IMG/VR virus record: IMGVR_UViG_2703718784_000007 | Strand: one strand, 5' to 3' | DNA from: a virus | Lineage: Duplodnaviria > Heunggongvirae > Uroviricota > Caudoviricetes | Length of the DNA: 26,417 nucleotides | Part shown: piece by piece, positions 1-15,253 of the stretch | Numbering within the stretch: position 1 is the first letter of the stretch | Layout of the letters: every line of letters begins with the position of its first letter | Position numbers and translations under genes: made by a program | The notes under the pieces: model-generated | Databases searched by the model: none | Told to the model about the DNA's origin: nothing | What the model saw: the letters and a program-made list of their open reading frames with translations, nothing else

Positions 1-300
1 TCGAGTCCTCGATGGCGGTCCATTATCTGCATCATGCGTTGTTAGCTCTGATGAGTGAATCATTGTCTTTTGAGCAACAGGCTATCATATAAGATAGTCT
101 CAGATTTCCTTGTTTATTCTCGCCGGATGCTTCGTAGATATTTGCAGGCATCTGTATGCAGGGGTATTATTGCGGCATATATCATCCGGAAAAATAAAAA
201 CTACATGCTGATCCGGAGATGATAGTTACAAGTCCTCCCGGATCCCGCATATTTACTATATTTTATAGATAATTGTTCTTGTTAATATGGAGATGGATAA

Positions 301-729
301 ATGTATTGCCGTGCTGTACCGGTTCTTGTTTTGATATTAGCCAGTCTGACAACTGGCTGCACAAAAGATGTATCGACAAATAATTATGATGCTTCGCTGC
401 ATCACTCAGATAAATTAATAAAGTCGCAAAATTTGAGCTTATCGGAACGTACCCCTGATGCCAGTGAAGAAATCCGGCAGTATGCCATTCAGGTCAGGGA
501 AGCCATAGAAGAACAGTTAAAGGATGCGGGTAAGTATTCAGGAAAAGAGTGTTCACTGAGAATGTATATGGCCCCGAATGGTCTTCTGCTACAGGTTAAA
601 AGAGAAAGCGGTGATCCCGATTTATGTCGTGAAGCGATGAATGCAGTAAAGAATGCTGATATACCATCACCACCGTCTTCAGGAGTATATAAAGCATTTA
701 GAAATGGCGTGCTGGATTTTAAACTCTGA
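301..729 (+). CDS. Lipoprotein with TolA C-terminal (domain III)-like domain; candidate moron
   Basis: ATG at 301 with GGAG upstream; N-terminal signal peptide ending in lipobox-like LTTGC; C-terminal ~90 aa closely resembles E. coli TolA domain III as recalled (GKxCxLR..APxGxLL..GDPxLC...IPxPPS...LDFK). Not verified by database search. Confidence 0.8.
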   Translation: MYCRAVPVLVLILASLTTGCTKDVSTNNYDASLHHSDKLIKSQNLSLSERTPDASEEIRQYAIQVREAIEEQLKDAGKYSGKECSLRMYMAPNGLLLQVKRESGDPDLCREAMNAVKNADIPSPPSSGVYKAFRNGVLDFKL

Positions 730-795
730 CTGGGGGAGAAGATTTTCTCCTGTCCAGATGATTTTGGGGTGCTGGAAAGATATTGTGCTGTGAAG

Positions 796-1042
796 TGTTA
801 AATTCCTCACAATTCAGTAAGTTGACAGTTGCCTGTCAGACTGGGCATTTGTTAAAAAAATTTCGCATGGTGAATCCCCCTGTGCGGAGGGGCGACTGGT
901 GAACGGTATGATCTCTTTGATGATCGTAAGCGAGAATACGCGGGTTTAGTGTCACCGGGCTGAACTCACCGGGAGGCACCCGGCACCATGCTCATGGTGA
1001 TACAGAAATGCGGCTTCAGCCCCTCTCTGGAGGGGCTTTCTT
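796..1042 (+). repeat. Copy A of triplicated structured non-coding module (conserved blocks tgttaaat..cctcacaattcag / gcatggtgaatccccctgtgcggaggggc / ctgaactcaccgggaggcacccggcaccatgc, ending in terminator)
   Basis: Direct comparison with copies B and C; long-range 8-bp helix 865-872/984-991 encloses hairpins 877-892 and 969-983. Confidence 0.6.
1018..1042 (+). terminator. Intrinsic terminator-like hairpin (agcccctc-tctg-gaggggct followed by ttctt)
   Basis: Perfect 8-bp GC-rich stem, 4-nt loop, T-rich tail. Confidence 0.65.
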
Positions 1043-1047
1043 ATGGA

Positions 1048-1115
1048 CAAAAAAGCCCGCGCTGGGAGACGCGGGCGGCAAGGAATAAACAATAAAACGT
1101 GAAGTAATATTTCAG
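1048..1115 (-). ncRNA. Candidate minus-strand small RNA, copy A (about 70 nt)
   Basis: Minus-strand sigma70-like promoter: -35 TTGCGC (plus 1147-1152), 18-bp spacer, -10 TATTAT (plus 1123-1128). Minus-strand intrinsic terminator (stem gcccgcg/cgcgggc at plus 1055-1076, followed by a T-run on the minus strand = plus A-run 1048-1054). Same architecture conserved in copy C. Confidence 0.3.
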
Positions 1116-1477
1116 CTGGCGAATAATACCCCATAGTAATCACTCTGCGCAACTGCGCGGCCTTTTTCGAATTGCGGGCTGTAGTCTCCCTTCTGCCGGG
1201 TGGCCTGGTTGCAGATTTCTTCATGGGGTAGGGTTCGGCAGTTAAAGCAGCGATGGCGCTGGGGCGTCGTGCTATAGGCGTTGAGCTGGATACCGGGCGT
1301 TTTGAACAGACTGCGCAGGCAATCAGGGATATATTTATCGGTAGCTGTTTGCAGAAGTAATCTCCCAAAATTCCATTTTTGGAATGCAGTGGTTGTTGCT
1401 GTAGTGTGGGCAAGTTCTGGAACTGGCTTCGTCCATTGCAGATGATTGTTAGCTGGATATCAGTTACCTCATGGAAA

Positions 1478-2197: not shown

Positions 2198-4186
2198 ATG
2201 GCATTTAAACACTACGATGTGGTCAGGGCGGCATCGCCGTCAGACCTTGCTGAACGACTGACACAAAAACTGAAGGAGGGGTGGCAGCCATTTGGCAGCC
2301 CTGTCGCCATCACGCCTTATACCCTGATGCAGGCTATTGCGGCGGAAGGTGATGTCACCACGCCGGTGCTGGTTAAACCATCGGGTGACGGGGAGACGGC
2401 TATCAGCAAGACCGGTGAGCCTGAATATTATTATGTTGTCGCGCTGGCGGGTCAGTCAAATGGTATGTCTTTTGGAGAGGGAGTACCGTTACCTGATTCT
2501 TATGATCGCCCTGATCCGAGAATTAAGCAGCTTGCCCGTCGACGTACCGTTACGCCGCGAGGCGTTCCCTGCACCTATAACGATGTTATTCCGGCAGATC
2601 ATTGTCTTCATGATGTGATGGATATGAGTGAAAAAAATCACCCCCGGGCAGACCTCAATAAAGGTCAGTATGGTTGTGTGGGTCAGGGACTGCATATTGC
2701 CAAAAAACTGTTACCGTTTATACCGGCGAATGCGGGCATTCTTCTGGTTCCATGCTGTCGTGGAGGCTCGGGAGTGACTACAGGTAATGAGGGAACATTT
2801 AACGCCTCTTCCGGGGCAAGCCCTGATTCTGCATTGTGGGGAGCTGATAAGCCGCTGTACCAGGATCTGTTAAGTCGCACGAAAGTCGCGCTGGCTAAAA
2901 ATCCCGGAAATATCCTGCTGGCGGTAATCTGGATGCAGGGGGAGAGTGATCTGGCTTCAGGAAGCCAGAGTCATAATGCTCTTTTTACTGGCATGGTACA
3001 GAAATTCCGTGCTGACATCGCTGATATGTCAGGGCAGTGCGTGGGGGGCTCGGCACTGAGCGTTCCGTGGGTTTGTGGCGATACGACGCATTACTGGAAA
3101 GAAAAATATGCTGCGTCTTATGAAACTGTATACGGTGGATATAAAAATAAGGCAGCGCAGAATATTCACTTTGTCCCTTTCATGGTTGATGGAAGCGGGG
3201 TAAATGTGCAGACCAATAATCCGGCAGAAGATCCTGATATTGAAGGTATTGGCTACTCCGGTTCGAAGTGGCGAGACAGTTCTGTCAGCTGGACGTCAGG
3301 TGACAGGGCAAGCCATTTCGGTTCATGGGCGCGGCGTGGAATTATTTCAGATCGTCTTGCAACCGCAATTCTGACCCACGCAGGCAAATACCCGGCGTTT
3401 ATCACCGGGCGGTCAGAAACGGTAGTTGCAGGAGATGAACGGGAAAACGTTACATCCGGAAATTTCCCGTCACCTGTGGAGGATGCTGCGTTATCACAGG
3501 ATGCACCTCAGAGAAGAACGGTTGTTGAGTATAATTCAGCTGTTGAGAAAGACAGCCTCGGTGGTAACTGGGCAGCCCAGCACTGGAATGCCCGGGACGG
3601 TGTCGCCGAGTTTGTTAATGATGAAAGCAGACAGGTGCTGAAGATTAAGCAGCATGAGGGCAAACAGGGACCGTGGATGCTGTCAGCAGGAGTATCAGCT
3701 GAAGATGCCCGTGCTCTGTATGAAAATGGCGGTGAAATAAAACTTGAATTCAGGTTGCCGGATGGTACCCAGGTTGCAGATGACAAATACCTCTTTGGTG
3801 TTTACCTGCCAGTTTCCGGGTGGACTCAGGAAGGCAACGGCAGCAATATGATGGCCTCCTTTTTCACTCAGACAAAAGCCAGTAACCTGGATGTCATGTA
3901 TCACGGTAAAACACAGCCTAATACAAAAATTGAGTCATTCGGTGCGGTTAATAACAACTGGCACACGCTTGTCTTTAAATATAAAGGAGGCGGCAATCAC
4001 CAGGTTATTCCGGTACTTGACGGAGAAGAGAAAACAGGTTTTGCACTGAAAGAAGGTCCGGTCACTTCTGCCTTTACGGTGGATAACATCACAGTGACAG
4101 GTATCAGCGCAAATCAGGGAAAATCTTATCCTGTCATGTTCCGCAGTATCATGGTAAGCATTAACCAGGCAACCTCTTCATCATAA
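2198..4186 (+). CDS. nanS: Prophage sialate O-acetylesterase (NanS-p family; SGNH/SASA esterase domain plus C-terminal domains)
   Basis: 662-aa ORF with GGGAGGA RBS; GQSNG-type catalytic serine motif (VALAGQSNGMSFGEG); size and position immediately upstream of the lysis genes as in Stx-type lambdoid prophages. Confidence 0.85.
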   Translation: MAFKHYDVVRAASPSDLAERLTQKLKEGWQPFGSPVAITPYTLMQAIAAEGDVTTPVLVKPSGDGETAISKTGEPEYYYVVALAGQSNGMSFGEGVPLPDSYDRPDPRIKQLARRRTVTPRGVPCTYNDVIPADHCLHDVMDMSEKNHPRADLNKGQYGCVGQGLHIAKKLLPFIPANAGILLVPCCRGGSGVTTGNEGTFNASSGASPDSALWGADKPLYQDLLSRTKVALAKNPGNILLAVIWMQGESDLASGSQSHNALFTGMVQKFRADIADMSGQCVGGSALSVPWVCGDTTHYWKEKYAASYETVYGGYKNKAAQNIHFVPFMVDGSGVNVQTNNPAEDPDIEGIGYSGSKWRDSSVSWTSGDRASHFGSWARRGIISDRLATAILTHAGKYPAFITGRSETVVAGDERENVTSGNFPSPVEDAALSQDAPQRRTVVEYNSAVEKDSLGGNWAAQHWNARDGVAEFVNDESRQVLKIKQHEGKQGPWMLSAGVSAEDARALYENGGEIKLEFRLPDGTQVADDKYLFGVYLPVSGWTQEGNGSNMMASFFTQTKASNLDVMYHGKTQPNTKIESFGAVNNNWHTLVFKYKGGGNHQVIPVLDGEEKTGFALKEGPVTSAFTVDNITVTGISANQGKSYPVMFRSIMVSINQATSSS

Positions 4187-12797: not shown

Positions 12798-14162
12798 ATG
12801 TGGAACCTTTTACGGCGAACCCGAAAAAACCAGAAATCAGGACGTGACGTAAGAGAGGCGGGCTGGACCAGCCTGTTTCAGGCGGTGGCTGAGCCCTTTT
12901 CCGGTGCCTGGCAGCAGGGCGTGAAAGCCGATCCTGAAGCCGTCCTCTCCTTTCATGCGGTGTTTGCATGTATTTCGCTGATATCCCAGGATATCGCCAA
13001 AATGCGGCTGCGTCTTATGCAGACGGATGCGCAGGGGATACGCAGGGAAACGCGCCGGGGGGATATTGCCCGCCTCTGTCGTCGTCCCAACGCCCAGCAG
13101 AACCGCATCCAGTTTTTTGAACTGTGGCTGAACGCCAAACTGCGTCACGGCAATACGGTGGTGCTGAAAATCCGTAATGCCCGGGGGCAGATCAAAGAAC
13201 TGCGTATTCTGGACTGGAACCGGGTTGAACCTCTGGTGGCGGATGACGGCGAGGTGTTCTACCGCATCACGCCGGACCGGAACTGCGGGATCACTGAGGC
13301 GGTGACGGTGCCTGCCCGGGAAGTGATCCACGACCGGTTTAACTGTTTTTTTCATCCGCTTATAGGATTGCCGCCGGTGTATGCCGCCGGGCTGGCGGCC
13401 ACGCAGGGGCATCATATTCAGGAAAATTCGACGTCTTTTTTCAGAAATGGCGGCAGGCCGTCCGGGGTGATTGAGATCCCCGGCAGTATTACGGAAGAAA
13501 ATGCGAAAAAACTGAAGAGCAACTGGGACAGCGGGTATACAGGCGAAAATGCGGGGAAAACGGCCATTCTGAGCAACGGGGCAAAATACAACCCCACGAC
13601 GTTTTCACCGGTGGATGCGCAGACGGTGGAACAACTGAAGATGACCGCTGAAATTGTCTGTTCGGTGTTCCGTGTCCCGGCCTACAAGATTGGCGTGGGA
13701 CAACCGCCTTCCAGTGACAACGTGGAGGCGCTGGAGCAGCAGTATTATTCCCAGTGCCTGCAGACACTGATTGAGTCCATTGAGCTGTTACTGGATGAGG
13801 CGCTGGAAACGGGGGAAAACGAGAGTACGGAATTTGATGTCACCACGCTGCTGAGAATGGACAGTGAGCGGCGCATGAAAACGCTGGGGGATGCGGTGAA
13901 AAATACGCTTCTCACGCCCAATGAAGCCCGAAAACGGGAGAACCTGCCGCCCCTGGCAGGAGGCGATGCACTGTATCTTCAGCAGCAGAACTACAGTCTG
14001 GAAGCGTTGTCCCGCCGTGATGCCCGTGAGGATCCGTTCGCGTCGTCCGGTAAAACAGCTTCCGTGCCTCAGGCGGTCGCTGCATCTGACGGTAATAAGG
14101 CAATCACTGAAACAGAGCATGACGCGGTGAAGGCGATGTTCAGGGGGATTCTGAAAAAATGA
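12798..14162 (+). CDS. Portal protein (HK97 family)
   Basis: 454 aa; first ATG after an in-frame stop at 12780, GGAG RBS; motifs typical of HK97-type portals (AVFACISLISQDIAKM, FFRNGGRPSGV, NAGKTAILSNG). Confidence 0.85.
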   Translation: MWNLLRRTRKNQKSGRDVREAGWTSLFQAVAEPFSGAWQQGVKADPEAVLSFHAVFACISLISQDIAKMRLRLMQTDAQGIRRETRRGDIARLCRRPNAQQNRIQFFELWLNAKLRHGNTVVLKIRNARGQIKELRILDWNRVEPLVADDGEVFYRITPDRNCGITEAVTVPAREVIHDRFNCFFHPLIGLPPVYAAGLAATQGHHIQENSTSFFRNGGRPSGVIEIPGSITEENAKKLKSNWDSGYTGENAGKTAILSNGAKYNPTTFSPVDAQTVEQLKMTAEIVCSVFRVPAYKIGVGQPPSSDNVEALEQQYYSQCLQTLIESIELLLDEALETGENESTEFDVTTLLRMDSERRMKTLGDAVKNTLLTPNEARKRENLPPLAGGDALYLQQQNYSLEALSRRDAREDPFASSGKTASVPQAVAASDGNKAITETEHDAVKAMFRGILKK

Positions 14163-15253
14163 ATGAACGTGAACTGTCCATTATCCGTGCGCTGGGTGAA
14201 GAATTTTCCGCGGTGCTGGCGGATTTACAGCGCACATTTGAGGAGAAAATAGCCGCGCAGGCACAAACGTTTGAAGAAAAACTGGCTTCCCTGTCTGTGG
14301 TATTACAGAAGTGCGTGACGGGCGATGATGTGCGTCCGATGCTTGAACAGATAGTGAAGGAGGCGGTAAGCCATATTCCTGTTCCGCGTGACGGTCGTGA
14401 CTACGATCCGGAAGTACTGCAGAAGGCGGTGAATGATGCGGTCGCAAATATTCCGCAGCCGGCGGACGGTAAAAGTCTCACCCCGGATGATNNNNNNNNN
14501 NNNNNNNNNNNNNNNNNNNNNNNNNNGCGTCCGATGCTTGAACAGATGGTGAAAGAGGCGCTAAGCCATATCCCTGTTCCGCGTGACGGTCGTGACTACG
14601 ATCCGGAAGTACTGCAGAAGGCGGTGAATGATGCGGTCGCAAATATTCCGCAGCCGGCAGACGGTAAAAGTCTCACCCCGGATGATNNGCGTCCGATGCT
14701 TGAACAGATGGTGAAGGAGGCGGTAAGCCATATTCCTGTTCCGCGTGATGGTCGTGACTATGATCCCGATGTTCTGCAGAAGGCTGTTCTGGATGCGGTG
14801 AGTGCCCTGCCGGCTCCGCAGGACGGGCGTGATGCCACGGCACTGGAAATACTCCCCGCCATTGACGATCAAAAATCCTTTCCCCGGGGCACGTATGCCA
14901 CACACCTGGGCGGACTCTGGCGGGCGTATGAAAAAACGCACGGGATGCGGGGATGGGAATGTCTGGTTGACGGGGTGGCGGATATTGACGTCAGCATGAC
15001 GGGTGAACGGTTGTTCTCTGTGGTGGTCCGGCAGAGCAGTGGCCAGCGTACGGAAAAAACATTTTCCCTGCCGGTGATGCTCTACCGCGGTGTGTTCAGA
15101 GCCGGTGAAACCTACCACCCCGGCGATACGGTGACGTGGGGCGGCTCGCTGTGGCACAGCAACAGTATGACCGGTGATAAACCCGGAGAAGCTCATTCAT
15201 CAGGCTGGACCCTGGCTGCAAAACGTGGGCGGGATGCTGGAGGCGGAAAATGA
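14159..15253 (+). CDS. Hypothetical phage structural protein with N-terminal coiled coil and tandem ~54-aa repeats; sequence interrupted by assembly gaps
   Basis: ATGA overlap with portal stop; three visible copies of RPMLEQ.VKEA.SHIPVPRDGRDYDPEVLQKAV.DAV...P.P.DG...; N-runs at 14492-14526 and 14687-14688 lie inside the repeats, so length and frame are provisional. Confidence 0.6.
   Translation: MNERELSIIRALGEEFSAVLADLQRTFEEKIAAQAQTFEEKLASLSVVLQKCVTGDDVRPMLEQIVKEAVSHIPVPRDGRDYDPEVLQKAVNDAVANIPQPADGKSLTPDDXXXXXXXXXXXXRPMLEQMVKEALSHIPVPRDGRDYDPEVLQKAVNDAVANIPQPADGKSLTPDDXRPMLEQMVKEAVSHIPVPRDGRDYDPDVLQKAVLDAVSALPAPQDGRDATALEILPAIDDQKSFPRGTYATHLGGLWRAYEKTHGMRGWECLVDGVADIDVSMTGERLFSVVVRQSSGQRTEKTFSLPVMLYRGVFRAGETYHPGDTVTWGGSLWHSNSMTGDKPGEAHSSGWTLAAKRGRDAGGGK
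14332..14830 (+). repeat. Tandem 162-bp (54-codon) coding repeats, at least 3 copies
   Basis: Copies begin at 14332, 14527 and 14689 (gcgtccgatgcttgaacag...); period 162 bp between copies 2 and 3. Confidence 0.75.
14492..14526. other. Assembly gap (35 N) inside the tandem repeat; second 2-N gap at 14687-14688
   Basis: N characters in the sequence. Confidence 1.

Follow-up and report, generated by a model that had tools for sequence, protein, structure and literature searches.

What might a prophage gain from carrying a copy of just one domain of the host protein TolA, placed behind a predicted lipoprotein signal? The question is raised by an open reading frame (ORF) at positions 301–729 of a 26,417-nucleotide stretch of Caudoviricetes DNA (IMG/VR virus record IMGVR_UViG_2703718784_000007), hereafter the window. 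Its 142-residue product combines a candidate lipoprotein signal peptide, a short linker and a close relative of TolA's C-terminal domain. Judging from these features, we give about an even chance to the reading that the protein is an outer-membrane-tethered decoy, which would make its host tolerant to Tol-dependent colicins and filamentous phages. The reading frame opens with ATG 301, the first one past the preceding stop codon, and a Shine–Dalgarno sequence (GGAG, 289–292) lies 8 nt before it. A RefSeq coding sequence (CDS) in Escherichia coli S19-651 is identical to the ORF, and the first 1500 bases of the window match there at 100%.

Residues 55–142 of the ORF product align with residues 334–421 of E. 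coli TolA without a single gap, with 44 of the 88 positions identical (50%) and the C-terminal LDFK kept. An earlier annotation of this DNA, made from the letters alone and hereafter called the sequence-only reading, had described a near position-for-position match that includes the LDFK end and takes in just this domain of TolA, and had named a sequence search against TolA domain III (TolAIII) and a structure prediction as ways of checking it. Both agree with the description, and nothing else of TolA is present. The Pfam profile TolA_C (PF06519) matches residues 53–140 over profile positions 8–96 of 96, with 78.9 bits (cutoff 25) and E = 3.4e-22, and TolAIII chains in the PDB are matched at E = 7e-25. 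The AlphaFold2 (AF2) model, built with 43 relatives as input, has a predicted local distance difference test score (pLDDT) of about 90 across residues 50–142. Foldseek superposes this model on TolAIII as solved in complex with g3p, namely on 1tol (E = 1.5e-11) with a root-mean-square deviation (rmsd) of 0.7 Å and on 2x9a_B with an rmsd of 0.6 Å and a template modelling (TM) score of 0.92, and the predicted fold is thus within 0.6–0.7 Å of the host domain. Similar to E. coli TolA domain III (1TOL, 2X9A, 3QDP/3QDR, 1S62), the phage domain has the disulfide pair, here Cys84 (nt 550–552) and Cys109 (nt 625–627), which correspond to TolA Cys363–Cys388 and occur without exception in the 51 relatives, and the L-D-F-K of the beta3 docking strand, here N135–K141 (nt 703–723). 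Unlike in host TolA, the domain of the phage protein is linked neither to domains I and II nor to the TolQ–TolR motor; the phage protein probably has its anchor in the opposite (outer) membrane, and its colicin A face has partly changed. A search of the BFVD viral structure library gave no match with E < 1e-3, and a PADLOC search for anti-phage defence systems gave none either; the sole PHROG family matched was 5772, annotated as ‘unknown function’.

Ahead of this domain, residues 1–20 (MYCRAVPVLVLILASLTTGC) comprise one basic residue, a hydrophobic core of 12 residues and the lipobox LTTGC, which ends in Cys20. As a criterion for a lipobox we used the PROSITE pattern of the PS51257 type, [LIVMFWSTAG]2-[LIVMFYSTAGCQ]-[AGS]-C near residue 20, together with a basic n-region and a hydrophobic core. 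LTTGC with Cys20 matches this bacterial lipoprotein pattern, and after processing the mature protein would start at Cys20, which would carry the lipid. The lipoprotein signal, whose lipobox had already been noticed in the sequence-only reading, is supported by this match and by the invariance of the cysteine, which is found in all 51 diverse relatives and in 43 further ones. In the alignment of these 51 short members, the invariant positions are Cys20, Gly81, both disulfide cysteines and Pro122. Furthermore, a lipobox is present in at least 73 of 126 short TolA_C proteins (190 amino acids or fewer), as opposed to 3 of 60 long ones. This concentration in short proteins and the invariance of Cys20 argue that the membrane tether matters. 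Between the signal and the domain the chain appears flexible, with AF2 pLDDT below 50 over residues 8–43. The AF2 model also contains a low-confidence beta-strand at residues 45–48 (LSLS, window 433–444), just ahead of the domain; by docking there, this linker strand might act as a self-plug for the open edge of beta3.

The TolB N-terminus, the N1 domain of filamentous-phage g3p (g3p-N1) and colicin N (ColN) all bind by strand augmentation on TolAIII beta3 (A415–K420), and g3p also touches the first helix (PMC7391070, PMC4339652). Colicin A (ColA) binds beta2, the opposite edge of TolAIII (PMC3365938). Ridley and Lakey (2015; PMC4339652) reported seven TolA positions whose mutation impaired ColN killing or g3p/ColN binding, namely Y340, I344, I348, F412, D418 (Pro), F419 and K420 (Pro). 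With TolA residue n mapped to residue n − 279 of the ORF product, these positions become Y61, V65, I69, F133, D139, F140 and K141, six of them identical and one conservative, and beta3 of the ORF product is free of proline. The beta3/alpha1 docking positions are likewise conserved across the 51 diverse relatives, for example the Tyr in 47 and the Phe in 46 of them. Because the beta3 face is kept, ligands of that face should be bound by the ORF product, as far as the residues allow a prediction; because the colicin A face has changed in part, use of colicin A's own TolA site is doubtful.

A decoy could work with these parts as follows. The product would be exported and lipidated at Cys20. Because residue +2 is Thr and not Asp, as is also the case in the two further lipoproteins described below (a tandem second TolA_C protein and a TonB-type protein), Lol would be expected to deliver it to the outer membrane and place it in the inner leaflet there. 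The flexible linker of about 34 residues would position the TolA domain III copy in the outer periplasm, with its beta3/alpha1 face able to bind the TolB N-terminus, filamentous-phage g3p-N1 and colicin N. Stationed there, the decoy would encounter colicin translocation domains and g3p on their way in through the outer membrane. It would trap them, and/or the TolB N-terminus on which TolB-dependent colicins rely, ahead of the real TolA. Capture would be a dead end, with no link to the TolQ–TolR motor, and the lysogen would tolerate group A colicins and resist filamentous phages. We infer lipidation, outer-membrane location, ligand binding, protection and expression in the lysogen alike. Such a decoy could be workable without wrecking Tol–Pal, because ColN binds TolA with an affinity of ~1 µM, as opposed to ~40 µM for TolA and TolB (PMC4339652). 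The sequence-only reading had also proposed a decoy that could exclude superinfecting phages or colicins, or else interference with the host Tol–Pal system; this functional proposal is supported in part, in that the retained beta3/alpha1 residues, the lipobox kept throughout the family and the TonB-head lipoprotein of the same prophage are consistent with it.

The gene is one of a large family. An exhaustive search of 1.84 billion representative proteins returned 292 relatives, and distant blastn against 5426 complete E. coli genomes detects this gene or one of its alleles in 897 (16.5%), about 123 of them at 90% nucleotide identity or more and 761 with a type at about 79%. Host tolA was not detected at the DNA level in this same E. 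coli search, which indicates that the TolA copy is old. The ORF is intact across alleles. When the two main alleles are compared, the ratio of non-synonymous to synonymous substitution rates (dN/dS) comes to 0.36 overall and to 0.31 for the domain; the TolA-like gene is under purifying selection. The commoner allele (loci L002, L003 and L029–L086) encodes a protein with 65% amino acid identity to the ORF product. In this commoner prophage type, a second gene with a lipobox and a TolA_C domain (L003:8547–8921, 124 amino acids, ~25% identical to the first) lies directly behind the first, and the pair sits immediately before the holin gene. Among sequenced phages, megablast with the TolA-like gene gave no match and tblastn gave a single record, mEp460_ev081.

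Outside prophages, homologues with the same architecture and ~32% identity are present on 1328 PLSDB plasmids (672 from Klebsiella, 550 from E. coli; IncR and IncF). The plasmid homologue (L005:6406–7435, L006:6406–7435) has 144 amino acids, the lipobox LITAC and a TolA_C match at E = 2e-24. In these two loci, from IncR and IncF plasmids, it is always preceded by a gene for a 182-residue thioredoxin-like (DsbA/TraF-like) protein, plausibly a dedicated disulfide partner of the two-cysteine domain. More distant members, with 25–31% identity, are stand-alone chromosomal genes of Enterobacter kobei and Gibbsiella (L087/L088:6001–6408, L089:6001–6405); their neighbours are metabolic and regulatory genes, with no phage or plasmid context.

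The window itself is the late region of a lambdoid prophage that resembles Shiga toxin (Stx) phages, and the prophage origin assumed in the sequence-only reading therefore stands. The gene order is Q, a small ORF, a DNA methyltransferase, tRNA-Ile, tRNA-Arg, the TolA-like gene, a methyltransferase remnant and a NanS-p-type esterase (2198–4186), followed by holin, lysozyme, Rz, a ‘TonB family protein’, an HNH endonuclease, terminase, capsid and portal. The TolA-like gene is thus downstream of Q and upstream of the holin–lysozyme–Rz genes. Stx2 phages match both flanks at 85–94%. Relative to the phage Stx2a_1447 (L004), window positions 1–48 are collinear through L004 3186 at 94% identity; homology in blastn then ends at position 48 and restarts at 807, which is L004 4628, 46 nt past stx2B. 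No stx gene lies within ~6 kb of the TolA-like gene in any of 80 related viral loci. The GC content is 42% in the ORF, 38% over 23–300 and 34% over 180–300, in a window of 54%. By composition and placement, the TolA-like gene is moron-like and occupies the stx slot. An AT-rich upstream region typical of a moron had also been proposed in the sequence-only reading: the low GC content and the exchange of a cassette for argO–stx2AB fit that proposal, and the best promoter match in the region is at chance level. As with stx2AB and lambdoid late-region morons such as bor, the gene has a foreign base composition and lies in the slot between the phage tRNAs and the small RNA (sRNA)/nanS-p region downstream of Q. 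The difference is in the cargo, which is an exotoxin in stx2AB and would here be an envelope lipoprotein aimed, as we propose, at competitors or phages. The features of the region are collected in Table 1.

Table 1. Coordinates of the features of the TolA-like locus (window numbering)
Feature	Position	Strand	Basis
CDS, complete; 142-residue lipoprotein precursor with TolA C-terminal domain	301–729	+	ORF, profile and PDB searches, RefSeq
Predicted signal peptide with lipobox L16-T-T-G-C20 (lipobox nt 346–360)	301–360	+	PROSITE-like pattern match
Linker, residues 21–54 (~34 residues), predicted disordered	361–462	+	AF2
TolA domain III copy, residues 55–142	463–726	+	gapless alignment to TolA 334–421, AF2/Foldseek
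3′ end of phage tRNA-Arg (argN-type), last left-side element in common with Stx2 phages	1–22	+	RefSeq tRNA, L001 11946–12022 = window −54 to 22
AT-rich leader/upstream region, including GGAG 289–292	23–300	+	38% GC
758-bp cassette without Stx2-phage counterpart, in place of argO + stx2A + stx2B	49–806	+	blastn L001 vs L004 (Stx2a_1447)
Lipoprotein precursor with TonB C-terminal domain, 108 residues	7009–7335	+	Pfam PF03544, E = 5e-15

Signals for expression differ between the two alleles. In the commoner allele, a promoter-like sequence, TTGAGC-18-TATAAT, matches the consensus at 10 of 12 positions 30 nt before the ATG, and between the TolA_C gene pair and the holin gene lies a terminator-like hairpin. 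Both are consensus matches only, and at that level they would correspond to the classical moron layout. In the window, no terminator-like site was found on the + strand between the tRNA and the ATG, and no terminator directly past the stop codon of the ORF. Because the stretch from the tRNA to the ATG is free of such sites, transcripts from the tRNA genes or from pR′ may read through into the ORF.

Could the gene simply encode what its name says? PGAP calls the product ‘cell envelope integrity protein TolA’ because its score with TIGR02794 (TolA), 72.6, exceeds the cutoff of 59.45, and it is on this score that the propagated name and the case for a genuine TolA rest. The match is confined to the C-terminal quarter, however, and NCBIfam NF007065 (TolA) gives 99.8 against a cutoff of 213, covering only profile positions 298–386 of 387, so that only the C-terminal ~90 profile positions are matched. 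The N-terminal transmembrane domain I, which serves TolQ–TolR coupling, is absent, and the N-terminus appears instead to be a cleavable lipoprotein signal; the long, periplasm-spanning helical domain II is absent as well, with a 34-residue linker, disordered in the model, in its place. With domains I and II missing, the protein cannot be energised by TolQ–TolR, and the PGAP name is a misnomer. We give practically no credence to a genuine TolA that substitutes for or complements the host protein, a reading dropped on architecture and profile coverage. A functionless captured fragment of host tolA would fit the presence of only the last 88 TolA residues in a decaying prophage. The prophage is probably defective, because its portal gene is frameshifted (window ~12798–14536, +) and several early genes have internal stops (RefSeq pseudogenes at L001 988–2472 and 4083–4261, among the early/replication genes). 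The TolA-like and TonB-like lipoprotein genes are intact despite these pseudogenes. Moreover, a mere fragment accords poorly with the acquisition of a signal peptide and a lipobox, both kept in hundreds of relatives, with a dN/dS of ~0.3 and an ORF intact across alleles, and with the absence of a DNA-level match to host tolA: every E. coli has tolA, yet only 897 of the 5426 genomes are matched. We regard this explanation as very improbable, and it was dropped on architecture and selection.

The main rival is a helper of lysis or release, in which a late-made protein would tie up the TolB N-terminus at the outer membrane and so poison Tol–Pal; the resulting transient tol phenotype (weak outer membrane, vesicles, leakage) would aid the spanins or the release of progeny or periplasmic cargo. 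The position of the gene between Q and holin–lysozyme–Rz, the common-allele pair directly before the holin gene and the lack of a promoter above chance level in the window's allele all suit this idea, and the conserved beta3 face is the TolB site; cells with TolA beta3 mutations are leaky and sensitive to sodium dodecyl sulfate (SDS) (PMC4339652). It is nevertheless an unlikely explanation in our judgement. The same architecture is found on non-lytic plasmids and chromosomes, where a lasting tol phenotype would carry a cost, and the 1328 plasmids and the ordinary chromosomal neighbourhoods indicate that the gene is not tied to lysis. The common allele's own promoter-like and terminator-like signals set it apart from the lysis genes, the TolA-like gene of the window is kept at a distance from the holin gene by sRNA copies (1.5 kb) and an esterase gene (2 kb), and the TolA–TolB affinity of ~40 µM is weak (PMC4339652). 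Somewhat less likely still is a physiological modulator of Tol–Pal, whose anchored TolAIII would bind free TolB N-terminus, shift the TolB–Pal equilibrium and tune outer-membrane stability or vesicles, and which mobile elements would have borrowed as a fitness factor. Such a role would explain the stand-alone chromosomal members beside metabolic genes in Enterobacter and Gibbsiella and the conservation of the TolB-binding face throughout the family while the colicin A face drifts; it leaves unexplained the strong enrichment on mobile elements (prophages of 16.5% of E. coli genomes; 1328 plasmids), the two diverged tandem copies in the common prophage type and the companion lipoprotein with a TonB head in the same phage. 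The tandem copies and the TonB-head companion make an arms race look likelier than homeostasis.

The decoy reading has its own difficulties, and the following observations weigh against it. The lipobox has an atypical Thr at −3, and one common allele, P0001, has Asn at −2, which places it outside the PROSITE pattern. At 50% identity to TolA, half of the domain surface is altered. On the colicin A face, TolA K368, the partner of the essential ColA Tyr58 (PMC3365938), is Tyr in the ORF product, and LLDIKP has become LLQVKR, with D377 replaced by Gln and P380 by Arg; K379 and K396 are kept, and the face as a whole varies freely across the family. The best match to a sigma-70 promoter upstream of the ORF, 9 of 12 positions at 141–170 (~130 nt upstream), is no better than in shuffled sequence. 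The TolA-like gene also lies in the predicted Q-dependent late transcript, and the protein may be made mainly in cells about to lyse. Finally, the non-mobile chromosomal relatives hint at a housekeeping role in the envelope.

A second lipoprotein of the same prophage, which copies part of TonB, the other energy transducer used by colicins and phages, also bears on the decoy idea. The TonB-type product starts with MKMKRNLPLIILLSSLVMGC-TQHK and has the lipobox LVMGC with Thr at +2, and its domain aligns to E. coli TonB gaplessly over 79 residues, PQYP motif included. As in the TolA-type lipoprotein, a lipobox and a short linker precede the outer-membrane-contacting head of an energy transducer. 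The two differ in domain family (PF03544 for the TonB type), in slot and in that they assort independently. The TonB-type gene is located after Rz, past the lysis genes, the position occupied by bor in lambda, and the protein is also found in phage 21, in Stx1a phages and in a Klebsiella phage. An obligatory TolA/TonB pairing was considered and dropped, since, of the 27 TonB-type loci whose upstream sequence is long enough, only 6 have the TolA-type gene as well. By analogy, the parallel design supports a shared logic. Tentatively, we extend the decoy reading to a general class of import-hub decoys, lipoprotein-tethered TolA or TonB heads on the mobile elements of Enterobacterales (lambdoid prophages, IncF/IncR plasmids) that would intercept bacteriocins and phages parasitising Tol and Ton; we think this possible but rather less than probable.

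Several known systems resemble the proposed decoy in part. In work from 1993 by Levengood-Freyermuth, Click and Webster (J Bacteriol 175:222), the TolA C-terminal domain exported to the periplasm reportedly rendered cells colicin-tolerant and leaky. That engineered domain was likewise a free, uncoupled periplasmic TolAIII, and its reported phenotype is the one predicted for the phage protein. The laboratory construct was soluble and overexpressed, whereas the phage protein is natural, diverged, predicted to be lipid-anchored and borne on a mobile element. The g3p of filamentous phages is reported to cause exclusion and colicin tolerance (Boeke, Model and Zinder, 1982). The step blocked is the same, TolA-dependent import, but the logic is reversed: g3p occupies the host TolA, whereas here the protein of the invader would be occupied by a copy of TolA. 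Two phage outer-membrane lipoproteins, Cor (phi80/N15/HK022) and Llp (T5), block FhuA. They too are small phage lipoproteins that shut the import route of other phages and colicins; they have no sequence relationship to the TolA-like protein, and they plug a receptor, whereas the TolA-like protein copies a host component. Cor/Llp and g3p tolerance are the closest analogues in function; a tethered copy of a host import hub would be a mechanism different from both. The domain itself is recognised by annotation pipelines.

A full-text search of openly accessible literature returned no functional study of the TolA-like lipoprotein. The sole mention found is in a 2010 Cronobacter genome paper, which noted a prophage ‘TolA’ and guessed that it aids phage entry. 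A further candidate, EDL933_2012, seemingly tied to ‘TolA’ and to 32-fold ciprofloxacin induction in a transcriptome paper, was dropped, as the supplement shows a tail fibre. The tolA of an O157 soil study is the host gene, and ‘TolA protein’ in tables on uropathogenic E. coli (UPEC) is a bare annotation.

If the decoy reading is true, one 142-residue gene would be a broad, mobile tolerance factor against Tol-dependent colicins and klebicins and against filamentous phages, carried by roughly every sixth complete E. coli genome and with relatives on more than 1300 plasmids, mostly of Klebsiella and E. coli. It would then bear on competition between gut strains and on bacteriocin- and phage-based therapeutics, and a systematic misannotation, ‘cell envelope integrity protein TolA’, would be corrected. 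The stx slot of Stx-type phages could likewise hold anti-competitor cargo as an alternative to Shiga toxin. Taken together with the TonB-head lipoprotein, the decoy would suggest that the copying of host import hubs is a common strategy, and, were import-hub decoys real, part of the natural colicin and klebicin tolerance and of the phage resistance of clinical E. coli and Klebsiella would be explained.

The region behind the TolA-like gene has further features. Between it and the esterase gene, we identified three copies of the Rfam sRNA family STnc100 (window 836–1048, 1518–1713 and 1778–1979, all +, 120–172 bits), each with a terminator-like hairpin at its end. An element located right behind stx2B in an Stx2a phage is homologous to the first copy, and this position is presumably the site of the anti-sRNA AsxR in O157 Stx2 phages. 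The DNA methyltransferase remnant (window 1196–1360, +) has an internal stop and lacks an N-terminus. It shares 85% identity with part of the intact gene carried by Stx2 phages upstream of their tRNAs, which suggests a past duplication or rearrangement in the stx slot. The esterase (+, 662 residues) is of the SASA/NanS-p type; alignment with the yjhS of Stx2 phages is limited to its first ~1190 nt (73%), and its C-terminal half differs.

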